A stretch of DNA of 64,000 bases from Treponema sp. J25 (lineage in GTDB: Bacteria; Spirochaetota; Spirochaetia; Treponematales; Breznakiellaceae): positions 9,287 to 73,286 of the forward strand of contig NZ_PTQW01000032.1 of assembly GCF_004343725.1 (NCBI RefSeq), given 5' to 3'. Positions 2,079 to 63,874 of this stretch are shown piece by piece. The position numbers and the translations under genes were made by a program. Below the pieces are notes generated by a model. The model was not told the DNA's origin, did no database searches, and worked only from the letters and a program-made list of their open reading frames with translations. The first letter of the stretch is position 1. Each line of letters starts with the position of its first letter.

Positions 2079-3216
2079 TCTCGTACTCCATCTCTACGAC
2101 CGGAACCTGCCACTGGTGCAGTTCCCTGAGGTTTTCAGCGGTAGCCCCAACGATGTACACCGCAAAGGTACACCCCTTCCGTCGACTGAGAAGCACCAGT
2201 TCCTGAAGCTTTTCTCCCCCAAAAACTCCCACATAGGCCACATGGGCACGATACGGAACCTCCACCAGGGCCCGATGGAACAGGTCCCATCCCTCATCAT
2301 CCTCGGAAATGCGAAGGCTTGCGAGACTATCCAGAATAGGGGTGGCGCTTTCATGGGCCGGGGGAATATAGAGCCGTTCCTCCCGATCAGGCAAAAGACC
2401 ATTCGACACAAGACCAGTCATCTGGCCCGCCATAGTGGCGGTAGACACAAGGGAGGCCCCATAGGAAATAGCCCATTCTGTATACAGATAGCGCTCTTTT
2501 AAAGGGAAAGACGGCCCATAGATATTCAAAATTACCAGAAGGGGGCTATCCATACTTGATTCATATTCGGTGGCGATAAGCTTCCCCACATGGGCGGTAG
2601 ACTTCCAGTTAATCCGACGCAGGTCATCTCCCACCTGGTATTCCCTTAGGGAACGGAAACGACCGGGATCTTCGTGAATCCGAAAGGGGCTGGGAAGTTC
2701 TCCCACCGGAGACCCATCGCCGGGATGGAAAGAGAGGGGCACCATGGCAGGATACACCACCAGATGGCCCCGTTCAGGGCTTTCCACAGTAACACTTTGC
2801 ATACCCAGAAAATCCCGCAATTCTATACGAACCGGTCCAAGTTCCCAGCGCCCCCGCTCTGTTCCCCGAAGGGCATACTGAATAATCCGCTTGCTCTTAG
2901 GAAGGATATCCAGTTTTTGCCGATTCTGACCGTGGGCATCAAAGGTACTAATACCATCGCTTAAGACGGCCGCCAGCATGGGAAACCAGCTTCGGTTCTG
3001 AATCTCTAGCTCGATACGGGCCAACTGGTTCTTATAAATTCGTACTATCGGATCTTTCCGACGGATCCGCAACCCCTGTTCCAGAAAAAACAGATACAGG
3101 AGATTTAAAAAAAGAAGGAAGGCCCCAAAAAGGGCAAGGGTTCGTAAGAGCGAAAGGGGGGCAAAAAAAGCAATAAGAATCAGGAAGAGGATCAATAAAC
3201 GACCCCGGTATTTCAT
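2071..3216 (-). CDS. DUF58 domain protein (MoxR-associated, vWA-like)
   Basis: Carries the hallmark DUF58 motif REYQVGDDLRRINWKSTAH, an N-terminal TM helix, and a 4-nt overlap with the MoxR ATPase gene. Confidence 0.75.
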   Translation of the reverse strand: MKYRGRLLILFLILIAFFAPLSLLRTLALFGAFLLFLNLLYLFFLEQGLRIRRKDPIVRIYKNQLARIELEIQNRSWFPMLAAVLSDGISTFDAHGQNRQKLDILPKSKRIIQYALRGTERGRWELGPVRIELRDFLGMQSVTVESPERGHLVVYPAMVPLSFHPGDGSPVGELPSPFRIHEDPGRFRSLREYQVGDDLRRINWKSTAHVGKLIATEYESSMDSPLLVILNIYGPSFPLKERYLYTEWAISYGASLVSTATMAGQMTGLVSNGLLPDREERLYIPPAHESATPILDSLASLRISEDDEGWDLFHRALVEVPYRAHVAYVGVFGGEKLQELVLLSRRKGCTFAVYIVGATAENLRELHQWQVPVVEMEYENE

Positions 3217-4195: not shown

Positions 4196-4687
4196 TTATG
4201 CATTTTTACCACAGCACTGTTTGTACTTTTTTCCACTGCCACAGGGACAGGGGTCGTTTCGTCCAATCCGTGGACCGGCCCGTACAATAGTCGTGGGCAC
4301 AATATCTCCCCGTTCATATCGCCAGTGCCCCCCTTCCTTTTTAAAATAGGCCCGTTCATGGTGGGTATCCTTAAGACCATCCAGGATATAGGTGGCTTCG
4401 AATTCCACGATTCCTTCCGTGTCATTGGGACTTCCTTTTTCGCTTGTCAGGATTCGCAGCCCCAGCCACTGGGAACGCTTACTCCATAGGCGAGTTTGTT
4501 CTACATCAATATCCTTTTGACCTTCGGCAACACAGGTTTTTACGATGTAATCGATGTCATGGACCACATAGGCGGTATACCGACTGCGCATCAGGGCCTC
4601 TGCCGTGGGAGCATCCTTGCTTCCCTTTATATACGGCTCACAACACTGGGCATATTCACGACCAGAACCACAGGGACAAAGGGACAT
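4196..4687 (-). CDS. YchJ-family protein with SEC-C metal-binding motifs at both termini
   Basis: N-terminal CPCGSG…QCC and C-terminal [18 protein letters not shown] motifs, matching the UPF0225/YchJ architecture. Confidence 0.75.
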
Positions 4688-16019: not shown

Positions 16020-16894
16020 GAATGTTTCTCCATCAGAATAACAGATACCGCCGCAAGCGCACTGATTGCAGCAGTTTCAACCCGTAGTACAGTAGCACCA
16101 ATGACCACTGGTACGCAACCGGCTTTCTTAAATTGTGCCACTTCGAAAAAAGAAAACCCCCCTTCGGGCCCAACAATAAGCATAACCTCCTCCACCCTAT
16201 CAGCCACAAGGTGATGTAGAAAAGCTACGTCTTCCGCATCTTGATGAAAGAGGAGAGCGCAGGTGTGGGGATTCTTCCCTTTTCTTTCGAGAATAATATC
16301 GCAAAGGCCTGCCACATCCGTAAGGGCTTTACAAGAGGTAGATACAAATGAACCACTCTGCTGTTGAGCTTCGATAATTATCTGCTGCCAACGACGGGAT
16401 CGGTTCTGGACGTCCTTTTCTGCGGAAAAACGAGGAATCGAATGTTCAGACGTAAAAGGGATAATTTCATCCACCCCCCATTCTGTGGCTTGCCGAATAA
16501 TGGTATCCATCTTGCTCCCCTTCGGCAGGGCCTGACAAAGCACAAGGCGCTCTGAACGGGAACGTCCCAGCCGTTTAGCGTCCGACTGCAAAGCCCGCAC
16601 CATGGCGGGTTTTAAGGACGAAATAGCCGCTGGATTTTCCGCTCCTGCCGTCATCGCCTCTTCTCCTCCTGGAGGAGCCAAAGGGCTGCCGCTCGGAGGC
16701 GATGATACCCTCGCCCACAGAGAAGTAGGGCCTAGACGTTCGATAGTACAGAGGACCTCTTCCCCGGCGGGAAGAAGGGCCCGAAACGAATCCCCTTCTT
16801 TAAAGCGCAGCACCCGTACAAGGTAACGGAAGTTCCTCCCCCCGAGTTGGATCCTTCCTTCCTGGGGGGCCTCTTCAAGTACCAGTCGCCGCAT
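15998..16894 (-). CDS. rsmE: 16S rRNA (uracil1498-N3)-methyltransferase RsmE
   Basis: PUA-like N-terminus (…YLVRVLRFKEGD…) and SPOUT C-terminus (…MLIVGPEGGFSFFEV…VIGATVLRVETA). The start was trimmed to the Met of MRRLVL so the gene does not overlap the ctp gene. Confidence 0.7.
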   Translation of the reverse strand: MRRLVLEEAPQEGRIQLGGRNFRYLVRVLRFKEGDSFRALLPAGEEVLCTIERLGPTSLWARVSSPPSGSPLAPPGGEEAMTAGAENPAAISSLKPAMVRALQSDAKRLGRSRSERLVLCQALPKGSKMDTIIRQATEWGVDEIIPFTSEHSIPRFSAEKDVQNRSRRWQQIIIEAQQQSGSFVSTSCKALTDVAGLCDIILERKGKNPHTCALLFHQDAEDVAFLHHLVADRVEEVMLIVGPEGGFSFFEVAQFKKAGCVPVVIGATVLRVETAAISALAAVSVILMEKHSWLPLKN

Positions 16895-58344: not shown

Positions 58345-59085
58345 CTAATCTACTACTTTTTCGTATTCGATGCTGACTATTTGAATGCCCGGCGTAGTGC
58401 AGATTATTTTATAATATTTGCTATAGCCCTTTTCAGCAAAAACAAGACCGAAATATTCCGCATTGGGCTGAAGGTCTACACTATAGAAAAGATTTTTTTC
58501 AAGTACATCGAGCCATTGTTTTCCCCTTTGGGCGTATTGGGAGACTGCCTCGAAATTTCTTTGTCTTGCCAGTTCTGCTGCTGTAGGGTCATAATAACTG
58601 GTTGAGCTGCTGTAGATACCGGAAACAGAACCATATCGAGATCCGCCGTATATGGTTCCGGTAGTGGATGTGTAACCTCTGCCGGCATCTATAGAACTAG
58701 CTACAGCTCCCAGTGCAAGCAGCACTGCCCCTGCGGTATATTCTGCTTTTTCTTTTCTATAATATTCTTCCGATGTATAAACCTTAAGTTTTTTCCAGTT
58801 TACCCTATCGTCGCTTTCATAAACAGAAAAATGGGTATCTGTAAATGAAATTGTTTTTCCTGAATAATTTTTTATTGCAATTTTTATCATTAAATCCTCA
58901 TCAACATAGACAGGATAGATGATCATACCAATATTTTGGTCGGTATAAACAGGGTAGTAAGCAGATCTTTCCTGAATAACCTGAATCTGATCATTTTGAA
59001 TGGGTACAAAATGGTATGTTGCGCATGAAATTACAGAAAGTACCAGTAATAACAAAATGCTCATCCTGCAGTAATGATTTTTCAC
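58345..59085 (-). CDS. Hypothetical lipoprotein, AT-rich gene with a Tyr/Ser/Gly-rich segment
   Basis: Signal sequence plus lipobox-like …LLLVLSVISC; composition visibly lower in GC than its neighbours. It is the second gene of the σ54-promoter-driven unit. Confidence 0.5.
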   Translation of the reverse strand: MKNHYCRMSILLLLVLSVISCATYHFVPIQNDQIQVIQERSAYYPVYTDQNIGMIIYPVYVDEDLMIKIAIKNYSGKTISFTDTHFSVYESDDRVNWKKLKVYTSEEYYRKEKAEYTAGAVLLALGAVASSIDAGRGYTSTTGTIYGGSRYGSVSGIYSSSTSYYDPTAAELARQRNFEAVSQYAQRGKQWLDVLEKNLFYSVDLQPNAEYFGLVFAEKGYSKYYKIICTTPGIQIVSIEYEKVVD

Positions 59086-59100
59086 AAGATTCTCCTTGCT

Positions 59101-59643
59101 TTATTGAATAGCTTCTATGCTCGAATACCAAGGGAAATAACTCTTATATTTGCTAAGGTAATACTCCAGCCCTGTGGTGTTAAAAAAAAGGGTAATGGGA
59201 TCTTGATAAGAAGGGGTACAGCGGACTACGAATCTATCGGCTTTTGCTATTTGTTGTAATAGTTCAGAGATGTCTCCTATGTAAAAGCTTGCTTCCCCAT
59301 CGGTCGAATTAGACCAGAATGTTCTTTGGGCTGGATTATTTCCAACTCTAAAATCAATATATTTACCCCGAAGATTAAAATATTCTATATCACTTCCCAA
59401 AAAGGTATTCCAGATAATAAATAGCTCGATTGTTTCAGAAGTAGCTCGAATTACCAAACGTTCTTTAGTTTTAAAATAATTTTTTGGCCCATCTGCCTCA
59501 AGGATTAAGAATACTTTTGATTCGTCGGTAATTGGGTCCGTTTCTTCATAATCTATCCATTCTGAATCGGGTGGTGGGCTTTGGGCCGGGATAGAAGAAA
59601 GGGAAACCAGCATAGCCACGATCATAACAAATGTTCGTTTCAT
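59101..59643 (-). CDS. Hypothetical secreted protein, AT-rich gene
   Basis: Start set at MKRTFVMIVAMLVSLSSIPAQ, which is preceded by an AGAGGA ribosome-binding site; the ORF-track extension runs to 59787. No family was recognised. Confidence 0.5.
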   Translation of the reverse strand: MKRTFVMIVAMLVSLSSIPAQSPPPDSEWIDYEETDPITDESKVFLILEADGPKNYFKTKERLVIRATSETIELFIIWNTFLGSDIEYFNLRGKYIDFRVGNNPAQRTFWSNSTDGEASFYIGDISELLQQIAKADRFVVRCTPSYQDPITLFFNTTGLEYYLSKYKSYFPWYSSIEAIQ

Positions 59644-59667
59644 ATTTATTCCTCTTTTTTGTGTTAA

Positions 59668-59683
59668 TGCAAATATCATGCCA
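59668..59683 (-). promoter_or_regulatory. σ54-type promoter on the minus strand (TGGCAT-N5-TTGCA, -24 GG / -12 GC) about 25 nt upstream of the 59643 start codon
   Basis: Plus strand reads TGCAAATATCATGCCA, whose reverse complement is TGGCATGATATTTGCA, against the consensus TGGCAC-N5-TTGCW. Spacing to the RBS and ATG is correct. The promoter is divergent from a σ54 enhancer-binding-protein gene. Confidence 0.55.
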
Positions 59684-59758
59684 AGTGTTTTTTGGTGGAA
59701 AGACCCTGGCGGGGTACGTAAAAAGCAGTATTTCATAGCACTAAGGGCCAGGAAAACA

Positions 59759-59794
59759 GTAACGATAGTTTCATAGTTACGGAACAAAAGTTAC
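59759..59794. repeat. 36-nt nested palindrome GTAACGATAGTTTCATAGTTACGGAACAAAAGTTAC (copy 1), ~95-120 bp upstream of the σ54 promoter; candidate enhancer (UAS) or CRISPR-repeat-like element
   Basis: Outer arms GTAAC/GTTAC and inner arms GTT(T/C)C/GGAAC. A second copy lies at 62647-62682 with 28 of 36 positions identical. Confidence 0.55.
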
Positions 59795-59885
59795 GAAGCA
59801 TTATGAAAACTAATCTTATAGGGGTGTCTAAAATAAAAAGAATGGTGGCTGCTGTGGCACCTGTAATTGGCATGTTTTATGCAGA

Positions 59886-61484
59886 TTGTCTGCCATGGAT
59901 TCTCATGATACTATGAAAGATATGGCAAAGACAGTCTCGGTTCTGGTGACCTTTATAGGAAATCGGGATCCCTATCCACAGGATGATGAAACTCCGGGGC
60001 CTATTCTATCCTTTTTATTGCAGCATCCGGTAGATATCGTTTATATGCTTTGCAGCAGCGCTGCCTACCATGAGCGAGCCCAAGATTTAATAAGAGAAGC
60101 TAAAGATGAAGGATTGGTCACCAAATTCGAAACGGTAGATTTTTATGTTCCCGATGTGGTCGATTACGGAATAATCTGGGAACGGTTGCTCATGAGTCTT
60201 ACGGATATACAACAGCGTGTTCATGAACATCTTCCAGTACGGATAAGTGTAGAATGGCTTTTTTTACTGGACTCCGGAACCCCGCAGATGAAATCCTGCC
60301 TTTTTCTTGCTGCCGCGACACAACAATTTCCGGCTCGTCTTTACCAGGGCATTCCGCCAGCCTTCTCCGGTGGAGCCTATAAGAGCCGCCAAGTAAACAT
60401 AGAACCTTTTTCTTTTATGCGGCCTGCATTCATTGTGGAAGGGAAGGTTCCAAATGTATATGAGGCTGATATAGGAGCGAATACAAATACCACTGGGAGT
60501 AATGCTCCCAAATATCGGGAAGCAGAAGAACGGGCATTGCGTATTGCCCGATATGAAGACCCGGTACTGCTTTTAGGCGAGACCGGTACAGGAAAAACCA
60601 GAATAGCCCGTCAGATACATGATGCGAGTCCCCGGAAAAGCGGGCCATTTGTAGAAGTAAATTGTTCAGCTATTCCGCGGGATCTAGCAGAAAGCGAACT
60701 TTTTGGTCATGTCCAGGGAGCCTTTACCGGAGCCAATAAAAATCGAAGCGGCAAAATCCGGGCTGCTCAAGGGGGGACCCTGTTCCTTGACGAAATCGGA
60801 GACCTGCCGCTGGAACTGCAGGTTAAGCTCCTTAAGGTGTTGGAAGAACACACCCTGTATCCAGTTGGCTCCGATGAACCTGTTACGGTTAATGTCCGGC
60901 TTATCGCGGCAACCCACCGGGATTTAGAACACATGGTAAAAGATGGCAGTTTTCGTAAGGACTTGTACCAGCGCCTTAAGGTTGTTGTCATTCGGCTTCC
61001 GCCTCTGCGGGACCGCAAAGAAGATATTTTACCTCTGGCTGACTATTTCCTTGATGAACGGAACCGTAAATATGGGGAACATAAGGAGCTTTCTGAGGCA
61101 GTAAAAAGCCGTTTGCTTGAATACTCGTGGCCCGGAAATGTCCGGGAATTGCGGAATACGATAGACAGCGCCTGTTCCATATCCCAGAAGGAGCTCATCG
61201 AGCTGGATGTATTGCCCGAAGAATTACAAGCTGGCACCTGGAGTAAGTATGGAATGCACGGCGCGTCTGGTGATATGCCGGGGGAGATCCTGCCTCCGGA
61301 AGGCTTGGATCTGCGGGCCCGACTGCTCCAAATGGAATGGAGTTATGTAGCGGCGGCTTTGCGCAGAACCGGAGGTAACCGGGAAGCGGCGGCAAAACTT
61401 TTGGGCATGACTGGTCATGCGTTTCGCAAGGCCCTACGGGAACGGCTTGCCGGTTTTTTCGAAAACGAATGGGAAGGAGAATAA
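59886..61484 (+). CDS. RtcR-family σ54-dependent transcriptional activator: N-terminal CARF domain, σ54-interaction AAA+ domain, C-terminal HTH
   Basis: AAA+ motifs [14 protein letters not shown] loop, …LFLDEIGDL…. The N-terminus (…[10 protein letters not shown]…[28 protein letters not shown]…) aligns in my recall with the E. coli RtcR CARF region (…HITTGTHVAQICWFLLAEARYLPARLIQ…). At 532 aa it matches RtcR in length. The exact start is uncertain (Met at 59886, 59895 or 59922). Confidence 0.8.
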
Positions 61485-61485
61485 G

Positions 61486-62628
61486 ATGCCGGAACGACAG
61501 GTACTCATTTGTACGGTAGGAACCAGTCTTTTTTCTGGGAATCTGGAACGGCTTCCCTTCGAAAGAGACAATCCCCCGAATTGGGAGAACCTTAAAAGGA
61601 CATATCAAGAAAAAAATTGGAGGGCCCTCGCAAGAGAATTAGCGTGCCTTCCGCCAGATAGCCGGGTCTGTGGTGCAGAAATTAATACCATCCACGAACT
61701 TATTACCCAAAAAGGACTTCCTTTGAGGGCCATCCATTTTCTTGTCTCGGATACGCCGGCAGGAGAAGAAACAGGAAAGGTACTTCAATATTACTTTAAA
61801 AATCATTCTTCCCATCATTTTAGTGTCGTAGAATATCACCGAATCGAAAAATTACAGGACCAACATCCTCAGGATTTTAAAGTGTATGGGTTACGTAACC
61901 TGGCCCGGGAAATTGGCACTATCATTCAGCGGATAGGTGGCCCCGAAAAGGTGCTTATCGATGCCACCGGTGGTTACAAGGCCCAAATTGCCATTGGATT
62001 GCTTATCGGCCAGGTGCTCAATATTCCGGTCATGTATAAACATGAACGGTTTTCTCAGATTATCGATTTTCCCCCTTTGCCGGTTTCTTTTGATTACAGC
62101 CTTTTTGGAACCTATGCGGGGCTTTTGCACTATCTTGAAAAAGGTATTGTCACGGTAGATTCGGAAGAACTAGATCTAACCGAAGAGGATGAAAAACTCC
62201 GGGTCCTCCTGGAAGAAACAGATGTGGGGAACAGACGACTTTTTGCCTTAAGCCCCATTGGTCAAATATACCTTCTTGGATACCGATTACACCATCAACG
62301 GGAAGTAACAGAACTGGCTTCAGCTCAAAATAAAGAGGTGCCCCACTTTTCGGATGACCACTATCCCGAAGGTTTTAAGGACTATGTGAAAAAGATTTGG
62401 AGAGAAGTCCCCTGGATTGTAACCATAAAAAGCCTTCCTTATTACCAACAACGGTCCATTAAAGGGAGGGGTTTTACGGTACGAGAAATAGAAGGGCAGC
62501 TTCGACTGGTTGGCACCTATCGGGATAGAAACGACTTCGGAGCCCGCTTTGAGATTATTCCCACCGATACTTCCCGGGAAGCCCTTATATACGCGGTGGA
62601 ACTGTTAAATGAAAGATACGGAGATTAA
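61486..62628 (+). CDS. CARF-domain protein (Csx1/Csm6/Csa3-like sensor domain) with a non-HEPN C-terminal region (wHTH-like segment plus ~100 aa unknown)
   Basis: CARF signatures …VLICTVGTS… and …VLIDATGGYK…. The ATG at 61486 is preceded by a GGAAGGAG ribosome-binding site and begins 1 nt after the activator stop codon. No Rx4-6H motif is present in the C-terminal half. Confidence 0.7.
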   Translation: MPERQVLICTVGTSLFSGNLERLPFERDNPPNWENLKRTYQEKNWRALARELACLPPDSRVCGAEINTIHELITQKGLPLRAIHFLVSDTPAGEETGKVLQYYFKNHSSHHFSVVEYHRIEKLQDQHPQDFKVYGLRNLAREIGTIIQRIGGPEKVLIDATGGYKAQIAIGLLIGQVLNIPVMYKHERFSQIIDFPPLPVSFDYSLFGTYAGLLHYLEKGIVTVDSEELDLTEEDEKLRVLLEETDVGNRRLFALSPIGQIYLLGYRLHHQREVTELASAQNKEVPHFSDDHYPEGFKDYVKKIWREVPWIVTIKSLPYYQQRSIKGRGFTVREIEGQLRLVGTYRDRNDFGARFEIIPTDTSREALIYAVELLNERYGD

Positions 62629-62646
62629 AGGAAAAGGATGTGTGGC

Positions 62647-62688
62647 GTAACAAAAGTTCCATAACGACGGAACAAAGGTTACTTTTTT
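62647..62688 (+). terminator. Copy 2 of the 36-nt nested palindrome (GTAACAAAAGTTCCATAACGACGGAACAAAGGTTAC) followed by TTTTTT; likely intrinsic terminator and/or protein-binding site
   Basis: Lies 19 nt after the CARF gene stop, with a T-run directly 3' of the stem. Confidence 0.5.
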
Positions 62689-62907
62689 AAGCACCCCTAT
62701 TTTAGGAACGCCGGGTTGAATTTCCGTGTTTGAGTCGCCTACAGCCGGACTACCGTTCCAAAGTTCCTACAGGGAAGTGGTTTTTTCTTCTCGTATAAAT
62801 AAGAGGATGTTAGTAGTATGGCGGATAGAGTTTTTAGAGATATTAGAGATTATAGAAATATCAAGTCATTTAACCATTTCTAATATAAGAAATTAAACAC
62901 AAAAACA

Positions 62908-62937
62908 TTGACAATTTTTAAATCTCAGAAGTATCAT
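62908..62937 (+). promoter_or_regulatory. Candidate σ70-type promoter upstream of cas6 (TTGACA-18 nt-TATCAT)
   Basis: Sequence match only. The 18-nt spacer and the closeness of the -10 to the AGGAG ribosome-binding site make it uncertain. Confidence 0.3.
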
Positions 62938-62950
62938 AGGAGTAACTATC

Positions 62951-63874
62951 ATGGGCCATCAGCTTACCAGCCTTTCACTCAATTGTACTATCACTTTTCA
63001 GAAAGCCGTTAGAGTAGATACCTATCCACCCTTTGTTATCCGAAGTGTGTTGGGCTACCATCTTAAACGAATGCACTGTGTAAGCCACCAGACCCCCTGT
63101 CAGGACTGCGTTTTCCGGCGCACCTGTGCCTATGTGTTTTTGTTCGAGAGTATTATCGACAAGGATACCCCGGTTTTAGAGGGCCGCGATCGAGCAAGTC
63201 ATCCCTTTAGGCTCATTGCCCACACTGAACCGGGTAGGGAGGCACGGGAACTTCCCTTAACGGTTCAGCTATTTGGTCGAGGGGTGGAATATGTGCCCCA
63301 CGTGGTCTTTGCATTACGGGAAGGAGGGAAAGGGGGACTTTTTCGGGAGCGGGTCCCCTACAAAATCAGCGTGAACAATGTAAAGGGAGAGGCAATTCTT
63401 GAAGGGGACCGGCTCGTGCAGTCCCGTCTGAGCACTGAGCGGTATAGCTATCCGGACGGCGACGAGATGGAAAGCCGAACGCTTCATATTTACTGTCACA
63501 GTCCCCTGCGTTTTAAGGTGAATAATCGCCTAACCAGCGATTTTTCTGGTCGGGACCTGATAGCCGCCACGAGCCGGCATCTGGACACGCTGTTTTTTCT
63601 TTATGGGAATGGCACAGAATTTGCAAAAGAAATACAAAACCAAAAGTGGGAGGGAGAAGTAAAAATAACCCATCGGGACCTGGCATGGCGGGATTACCCG
63701 CGGTTCTCCCGCCGCCAGGGAACTCCGATGAAACTGGGCGGCCACGTGGGACGCCTTACCCTAAGTGGAAGCGCCCCCCGCTGGGTCTGGGAAACCCTGC
63801 ACCTGGCAGGCCGCATCGGCACCGGCAAAAACACAAGCTTCGGCTTTGGCCATATCGAAGTAACGGAGGAGTGA
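62951..63874 (+). CDS. cas6: CRISPR-associated endoribonuclease Cas6
   Basis: Duplicated ferredoxin-like (RAMP) organisation with the C-terminal glycine-rich loop GRIGTGKNTSFGFGHIE characteristic of Cas6; length 307 aa. Confidence 0.7.
   Translation: MGHQLTSLSLNCTITFQKAVRVDTYPPFVIRSVLGYHLKRMHCVSHQTPCQDCVFRRTCAYVFLFESIIDKDTPVLEGRDRASHPFRLIAHTEPGREARELPLTVQLFGRGVEYVPHVVFALREGGKGGLFRERVPYKISVNNVKGEAILEGDRLVQSRLSTERYSYPDGDEMESRTLHIYCHSPLRFKVNNRLTSDFSGRDLIAATSRHLDTLFFLYGNGTEFAKEIQNQKWEGEVKITHRDLAWRDYPRFSRRQGTPMKLGGHVGRLTLSGSAPRWVWETLHLAGRIGTGKNTSFGFGHIEVTEE

Follow-up and report, generated by a model that had tools for sequence, protein, structure and literature searches.

A stretch of 64,000 nucleotides from Treponema sp. 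J25 (contig NZ_PTQW01000032.1; the window, to which all coordinates refer unless one of our fetched comparison loci, prefixed L, is named) contains a 36-nt element twice, once before and once after a two-gene unit that encodes a sigma-54 activator and a second CARF-domain protein beside type III-B CRISPR genes. What is this element for? An earlier note had raised possibilities that ranged from an enhancer and a terminator to solo CRISPR-repeat remnants and the insertion boundaries of a cassette. On comparison of sequences, we consider it very likely that the element is an enhancer (an upstream activating sequence, UAS), recognised by the C-terminal helix-turn-helix (HTH) of the adjacent RtcR-like CARF-AAA+ activator and driving sigma-54 promoters. 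What the loci show directly is how the element is built, that it is conserved and polar, that it goes with the activator gene, and where it stands with respect to −24/−12 promoters.

The pattern GTAAC-N4-GTTYC-N8-GGAAC-N4-GTTAC occurs at 59759-59794 (copy 1, plus strand) and 62647-62682 (copy 2, minus strand). These are the only matches in the window even when up to three mismatches are allowed, and none was found in 100 dinucleotide-preserving shuffles of it, which confirms the two positions and the uniqueness that the earlier note had reported. The identity between the copies, previously counted as 28/36, is 29/36 (81%) by repeat finder, and the similarity is confined to the 36 nt. The two intergenic regions that hold the copies are rich in A+T, with 38% and 36% G+C compared with 50% in the window as a whole. 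We do not retain the description of the element as a nested palindrome. Copy 1 is made up of dyad A (GTAAC-gata-GTTTC, 59759-59772), a central pentamer (GTTAC, 59776-59780) that falls within the N8, and dyad B (GGAAC-aaaa-GTTAC, 59781-59794). An alignment of 28 copies gives the consensus GTAAC-n4-GTTCC-n3-GTTAC-GKAAC-n4-GTTAC, with five pentamers, and G18, T19, T20 and A21 of the central one, which was not in the search pattern, are invariant in 28/28 copies. As GTTCC differs by a single base from the complement of GTAAC, the element is most simply described as a pair of imperfect 14-bp dyads, GKAAC-N4-GTTMC, centred 22 bp from each other, and one extra half-site, GTTAC, abutting the second dyad. 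The element is asymmetric, not a true palindrome, and its polarity is set by the central pentamer; because this pentamer lies on the opposite side in copy 2 (ATAAC at 62661-62665 on the plus strand), copy 2 is inverted relative to copy 1. Wherever a member of the 28-copy set is upstream of an activator gene, the polarity is the same. A distance of 22 bp is two helical turns and would place two HTH dimers on one face of the DNA; the element thus has the dyad symmetry and phasing of enhancers bound by bacterial enhancer-binding proteins (bEBPs).

Copy 1 sits roughly midway between two divergent sigma-54 promoters and is the predicted enhancer common to both. The first, TGGCATGTTTTATGCA at 59868-59883 on the plus strand, is correctly spaced, is identical in L001 and would serve the operon of the activator and CARF7 genes. 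The second, TGGCATGATATTTGCA at 59668-59683 on the minus strand, is the better sigma-54 match of the two and is conserved in L001 as TGGCATGAAAATTGCT; it stands 25 nt upstream of the ATG (59643) of a gene for a 180-aa protein, which has the ribosome-binding site GAGGA. From the centre of copy 1 (59776.5) the distance is 93 bp to the GG of the plus-strand promoter and 95 bp to that of the minus-strand promoter, within the range of ~70-200 bp upstream of a −24 GG/−12 GC promoter that is typical of a UAS; copy 2 lies outside this range. The earlier note had also placed copy 1 at UAS distance from a sigma-54 promoter, which holds for TGGCATGTTTTATGCA; the −24 element TGGCAC at 59855 does not stand, as its GG-to-GC spacing is two bases too long and it is not conserved in the 85% orthologue, and the divergent TGGCATGATATTTGCA had been missed.

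A candidate cognate activator is encoded next to the element. Its gene (59895-61484, plus strand) has its ATG (59895) 100 bp from the end of copy 1, the candidate start codons being 59886, 59895, 59913 or 59922. The protein is an RtcR-like bEBP with an N-terminal CARF domain, a sigma-54 AAA+ domain with GAFTGA and a C-terminal Fis-type HTH; Pfam assigns the sigma-54 interaction domain, the AAA lid, the HTH and, weakly, an N-terminal Csm6-type CARF, and the GAFTGA and Walker motifs are visible in the sequence. The best curated match is NCBIfam RtcR at 358.6 bits. This is below the equivalog cut-off of 650 bits, and rtcA and rtcB are not found nearby in the window, so we do not regard the protein as RtcR proper. 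It matches PADLOC RtcR_PspF2--CARF_AAA_HTH over its full length (403 bits), and by its sequence it belongs to the catalogued RtcR_PspF2 CARF_AAA_HTH group.

The comparative data link element and activator well beyond this locus. A scan of metagenome contigs with the pattern alone gave 22 matches, of which 15 are this element (the window's own contigs and duplicates counted) and 7 an unrelated perfect hairpin. All 15 element contigs have another GTTAC within the central eight bases, directly beside the inner pentamer, although the pattern does not require it. An RtcR-like activator gene is present on 9 of the 15; of the remaining six, the five that were checked (all but L067) are short contigs that run out within 1.9 kb on the side of the activator. 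Genome-contig loci were fetched protein-first with the CARF domain alone, independently of the DNA pattern, and in them the element lies upstream of activator orthologues at 48-85% identity, including the 85% orthologue (L001:7864-7899). Relatives at 40-45% lack the central pentamer but have paired AAC-N4-GTT dyads at 21-23 bp. The same element with the same polarity occurs at ~25 independent spirochaete loci. The activator family is large in spirochaetes (~100 clusters at 47-60% identity, full length), and the C-terminal HTH is nearly invariant among members that are only ~50% identical overall.

The promoters follow the element. Counting as sigma-54 promoters sites with up to two mismatches and GG and GC intact, for which the background density of 0.12 per kb-strand gives ~0.02 expected per 200 nt, we find that most elements have one 70-175 bp from their centre, reading away from dyad A, and that a second reads into the activator gene at 79-142 bp where that gene is adjacent. 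In 55 loci reaching down to 40% identity, the activator start is preceded by a sigma-54 promoter at −5 to −46, and a divergent promoter of this kind lies at −110 to −460. Linkage, polarity and promoter position thus strongly support the proposal of the earlier note that copy 1 is the enhancer of the CARF-bEBP.

The same alignment speaks to whether the element acts as DNA or as RNA. In the nested hairpin that it could form, no base pair is changed on both sides among the 28 copies, and in 8 of them the pair at columns 13/24 is lost (C facing T) with no compensating change. The pentamers are conserved and the N4 spacers vary freely. Fold energies are modest (−7.2 kcal/mol for copy 1 and −9.9 kcal/mol for copy 2), a T run follows copy 2 alone and neither copy 1 nor any other element copy, and an Rfam E-value scan of 59600-63000 gave no matches. 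Conserved pentamers, free spacers and the lack of compensatory changes argue for a protein-binding enhancer, and we rejected an RNA hairpin as the general explanation.

Our model is as follows. By analogy with RtcR and other bEBPs, binding of a ligand to the CARF domain would lead to oligomerisation of the AAA+ domain on the element (PMC9650030; PMC7790460), and DNA looping would then allow sigma-54 RNA polymerase to be remodelled at both flanking promoters. Candidates for the ligand are a cyclic oligoadenylate made by the adjoining type III-B system and, on the example of RtcR, RNA ends that carry a 2',3'-cyclic phosphate. Activation of the promoter at 59868 would amount to auto-activation of the activator-CARF7 operon, and activation of the minus-strand promoter at 59683 would give expression of the operon of the small exported protein.

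Several observations count against this model or limit the weight of its evidence. The support is comparative inference throughout. The pattern partly fixed the outer and inner pentamers of the element set, so the set is partly ascertained by its own pattern and the invariance of the pentamers is inflated; this does not apply to the central pentamer, the polarity or the linkage to promoters. No RpoN-box motif was found in the window when rpoN was sought. At L081, L011 and L008 the activator's own sigma-54 promoter is 1.3-1.4 kb away from the only element, and there the model requires action at a distance. Copy 2 fits the model less readily than copy 1: it is absent from the orthologous type III-B loci L001, L085 and L005, and in the window no GG-N10-GC promoter lies within 330 bp on either side of it.

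As a regulatory site the element is very probably of an ordinary kind, and what appears to be new is the definition of what a defence-associated regulator family of spirochaetes controls. ZraR (zraP/zraSR) and PspF (pspF/pspA) bind tandem dyads between divergent units, one of which encodes the activator and the other a small envelope or periplasmic protein; unlike the window activator, these proteins have a receiver domain or no sensory domain, their DNA motif is unrelated, and pspF itself is sigma-70 dependent. At glnAp2, NtrC binds two dyads on one helix face ~100-140 bp upstream of a −24/−12 promoter and can act over kilobases, but its motif is TGCACC-N5-GGTGCA, its sites are 32 bp apart and there is no fifth half-site. 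Also close is RtcR of the rtcBA system of E. coli and Salmonella, which has the same CARF-AAA+-HTH architecture with the CARF domain as inhibitory sensor, and whose gene is likewise divergent from a sigma-54 target promoter with the UAS in the spacer (Genschik 1998; PMC7790460; PMC9650030). The window activator is only 36% identical to it over residues 120-444, and the HTH regions do not align; the window locus also differs in having no rtcA/rtcB neighbours and in that the activator's own gene is predicted to be sigma-54 dependent. We tried the E. coli rtcB-rtcR spacer as a motif template, and it contains no GKAAC-N4-GTTMC dyads.

RtcR-like CARF-bEBPs have been predicted since 2014 to control defence, heading 'superoperons' with restriction or defence genes downstream and binding a UAS (Makarova et al. 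2014, PMC4012209; Bell et al. 2024, PMC11090510); these papers do not define the site, and so far no binding site or regulon has been defined. Nor do they describe the divergent target encoding a small exported protein that is seen at the window locus. In the 2014 census the family was mostly not next to cas genes (PMC4012209), whereas the window activator adjoins type III-B and CARF7 genes. The family studied here resembles those predicted superoperons (PMC4012209; PMC11090510) in that it heads BREX (bacteriophage exclusion), SNF2/NOV_C helicase, UvrD-like helicase and type III-B loci. In the literature that we searched, we found no described motif of this kind and no link between sigma-54 and type III CRISPR. 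The element is a concrete, searchable candidate operator, with which the regulon could be listed in any spirochaete genome, experiments designed and the question of the ligand approached.

Copy 2 is the part of the locus for which other explanations have most to offer. It begins 18 bp past the stop codon of the CARF gene (62628) and, as the earlier note had it, is followed directly by a T6 run (62683-62688, plus strand) and precedes cas6. Among the loci fetched it is present only in the window, the conspecific contig L066 and L002-L004. In the window, L066 and L002 it forms a conserved island (33/36 invariant, plus T6) between diverged flanks, and we suggest that it is a second, inverted predicted site for the same activator, kept by selection in one sub-lineage. 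With no sigma-54 promoter within 330 bp and a T6 run behind it, it may be a terminator, a remote enhancer or a relic. The likeliest reading is that this site also works as a weak terminator or insulator separating the sigma-54 operon from a sigma-70-driven cas6 operon, or acts as a remote enhancer, or both; it is also possible that it is a relic or a decoy site.

The best of the alternatives is that copy 2 alone is mainly an intrinsic terminator or insulator that ends the activator-CARF7 operon, a binding-site dyad having been co-opted as a hairpin with T6; we regard this as possible, if on the unlikely side. The hairpin (two 5-bp stems, −9.9 kcal/mol, z −4.0) followed by T6 looks like a weak intrinsic terminator, the T6 is kept in all three loci with copy 2 despite their diverged flanks, and every other copy of the element lacks a run of T or A. 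A second small hairpin with a T run, GTTCC-tacag-GGAAG at 62763-62786 (plus strand), uses the same pentamers and forms an island of conservation between copy 2 and the promoter of cas6; its fold is no better than that of shuffles. Where copy 2 is missing, the spacers between CARF gene and cas6 are very short (117 bp, 34 bp and ~15 bp at the orthologous type III-B loci of 85%, 65% and 52%), and those of 117 and 34 bp are consistent with read-through there. However, the stem of copy 2 is weak and broken by a 4x4 internal loop, and the central GTTAC-type pentamer, needless for a hairpin loop, is also kept in L002 and L066. The pentamers are conserved without covariation, and a terminator role would in any case be compatible with protein binding. 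The terminator proposed in the earlier note is a possibility for copy 2 only; as a generic role it is not supported, the element being rare metagenome-wide and restricted to activator and sigma-54 contexts.

Somewhat more doubtful is the idea that copy 2 is the remote enhancer of a sigma-54 promoter inside cas6, which would bring the cmr effector genes under control of the activator. Between copy 2 and cas6 no sigma-54 promoter was found; a sigma-70-like promoter, TTGACA-18-TATCAT (11/12 matches), stands before the gene at 62908-62937 on the plus strand. A three-mismatch sigma-54 site in L002, 42 bp from the centre of copy 2, was rejected as too close. The candidate target is the perfect consensus TGGCACAGAATTTGCA in the 3' part of cas6 (63610-63625, plus strand), 258 bp before the next cas gene; by our estimate ~0.06 perfect 16-nt matches are expected by chance in 64 kb. 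It is kept in L002 (3905-3920) and, with changes only in the spacer, in the 74% Cas6 orthologue (L001:11513-11528), in a stretch of Cas6 that is variable apart from this. The side of copy 2 that is turned towards cas6 is, in the frame of the element, the one on which a promoter stands elsewhere, and sigma-54 sites precede cas6 in L026 (perfect, ~300 bp upstream) and L005 (one mismatch, 190 bp upstream). The distance from copy 2 is long at 945 bp, but other family members appear to use elements 1.3-1.4 kb away, and with L081, L011 and L008 in mind action over ~1 kb is not implausible. Against the idea, L001 keeps the internal promoter and lacks copy 2, so the two do not co-occur; moreover, the site is lost in Cas6 orthologues at 46% and 30%, and its conservation is possibly a by-product of coding (G-T-E-x-A).

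A third alternative, which we judge improbable, leaves the element in place and assigns it to another regulator, for instance the WYL protein whose gene adjoins many members of the family, or some unlinked factor, with the activator working without it. Some bEBPs do act without specific DNA binding. At four loci (L081:5493-5528, L011:975-1010, L015:4387-4422 and L068:1042-1077) the TAA stop codon of a divergent gene for a ~400-aa WYL-domain protein lies inside the last pentamer of the element (GTTAC/GTAAC), so that the enhancer overlaps the end of the gene. But the window and many other loci have the element and no WYL gene (the CARF7 gene and the WYL-domain gene that abuts the element elsewhere show no homology by BLAST), the activator is the only gene that is always linked, its HTH is almost invariant, and the position of the element fits enhancer geometry.

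Finally, the 36-nt length, the dyad symmetry and the mutually inverted copies around the activator-CARF pair beside a type III-B locus suggested solo or degenerate CRISPR repeats or the terminal repeats of a mobile two-gene cassette, a reading that is hardly credible given that the element occurs at BREX and helicase loci without cas genes, that TRF and a scan of k-mer spacing turned up no CRISPR array in the window, in L066 or in any of the 86 loci fetched, that similarity stops at the 36 nt, and that orthologous cassettes carry copy 1 only. Its presence at loci without CRISPR argues against its being a relic of a CRISPR repeat. No record matched the window Cas6 sequence exactly. As for cassette boundaries, the orthologues at 85%, 65% and 52% have both genes and no copy 2, and the breakpoints are elsewhere: sliding identity between the window and L066 is 100% to ~61250 and then 83-97% until ~63200, and that to L002 switches from 50-67% to 78-96% at ~61280. 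With breakpoints at ~61250-61280 and ~63200 and not at the copies, the activator and CARF7 genes do not travel together as a single unit. A generic repeat scattered over loci unrelated to sigma-54 promoters (a repetitive extragenic palindrome or a miniature inverted-repeat transposable element), which the earlier note had named as the finding that would overturn its enhancer, was likewise rejected: there are two copies in 64 kb, the element is rare metagenome-wide (15 contigs), and it is confined to activator and sigma-54 contexts. In genome annotation, 36-nt dyads next to cas genes should not be mistaken for CRISPR repeats or for the ends of cassettes.

If the element is the enhancer of the CARF activator, its neighbours indicate what the family may control. 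The leftward target genes mostly encode small proteins of several unrelated families, either exported, with a signal peptide, or lipoproteins with the lipoprotein box; others encode an N-formylglutamate amidohydrolase and, in L026, cas6. Downstream of the activator stand BREX genes (BrxA, BrxB, BrxC; L008, L081), genes for SNF2+NOV_C helicases (L006, L011) or UvrD-like helicases (L012, L018, L023), or the type III-B arrangement as in the window (5 loci, among them L005, L001, L002 and L085). That one activator family heads type III-B, BREX and helicase systems hints that a shared module for transcriptional alarm passes from one defence island to another. We tentatively suggest, as a possibility that we consider rather unlikely, an infection-alarm regulon common to many spirochaete defence islands, in which the CARF activator would sense a nucleotide or RNA-damage signal, here possibly the cyclic oligoadenylate of the type III-B Cas10, and switch on sigma-54 transcription of itself, the CARF7 effector and small envelope proteins and, through copy 2 and the promoter inside cas6, of the Cmr effector genes too. 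If true, this would be transcriptional positive feedback from CRISPR signalling through sigma-54.

The remaining genes of the locus can be described briefly. The CARF7-family protein (61486-62628, plus strand), whose gene is predicted to be co-transcribed with that of the activator, combines a Cas_APE2256 CARF domain with a DUF2103-type C-terminal domain and weakly matches PDB 8phb, an APE2256-family protein. The 180-aa protein (59101-59643, minus strand), encoded by the first gene of the divergent sigma-54 unit, has a signal-peptide-like N-terminus and no family match; it is followed by a 246-aa open reading frame (58345-59085, minus strand), and synteny in the region of its gene is kept in L001. 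On the other side cas6 (62951-63874, plus strand) lies 3' of the CARF7 gene and copy 2, and the genes after it in related loci are a type III-B set (RAMP, Cmr2/Cas10, Cmr3).

Some minor observations concern the window itself. One of the breakpoints (~61280) is inside the highly conserved HTH-coding end of the activator gene. Directly after copy 2 the mosaic locus has a segment of ~75 nt (62689-62760) unrelated to L066 and L002. Upstream of the sigma-70-like promoter of cas6 there are TAGAG repeats with a 9-bp period, four copies in the window (62826-62861) and six in L002 (~3105-3170) and L066 (4462-4497), which might serve another regulator as an array of operators. At 16823 there is a lone dyad inside an open reading frame, which was treated as chance (0.26 expected per window). 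The palindromic core GTTACGTAAC occurs once more at 61890-61899, within the CARF7 coding sequence; with ~0.2 such sites expected by chance, by our estimate, this one is probably fortuitous.

Others concern the comparison loci. In spirochaete metagenome-assembled genomes, several different anti-phage systems are headed by this one activator family, whose HTH hardly varies and whose enhancer is the same; the family is usually paired with a divergent gene for a small lipoprotein or exported protein. L011 has five to six direct repeats of GAATCCACCTG with ~24 nt spacing at ~770-900, beside an element without a leftward sigma-54 promoter. The leftward promoter of the L085 element (4597-4632) has a mutated −12 (TGGCACAGTTTTTGAG), and by eye a YefM/YoeB-like toxin-antitoxin pair stands there in place of the exported-protein gene of the related L057. 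The L015 locus contains a duplication of the element together with its left flank (4387 and 8063); the −12 GC of the second copy is changed to GT, so its promoter appears to be decaying. The unrelated perfect hairpin GTAACGGTCGTTTCCTTTGAAGGGAACGRCCGTTAC, which matched the pattern by chance, was found in L067, L069, L074, L076, L077, L079 and L083, with a degenerate second copy 45 nt away in L067, L074, L077 and L079, the last of which is labelled human gut.

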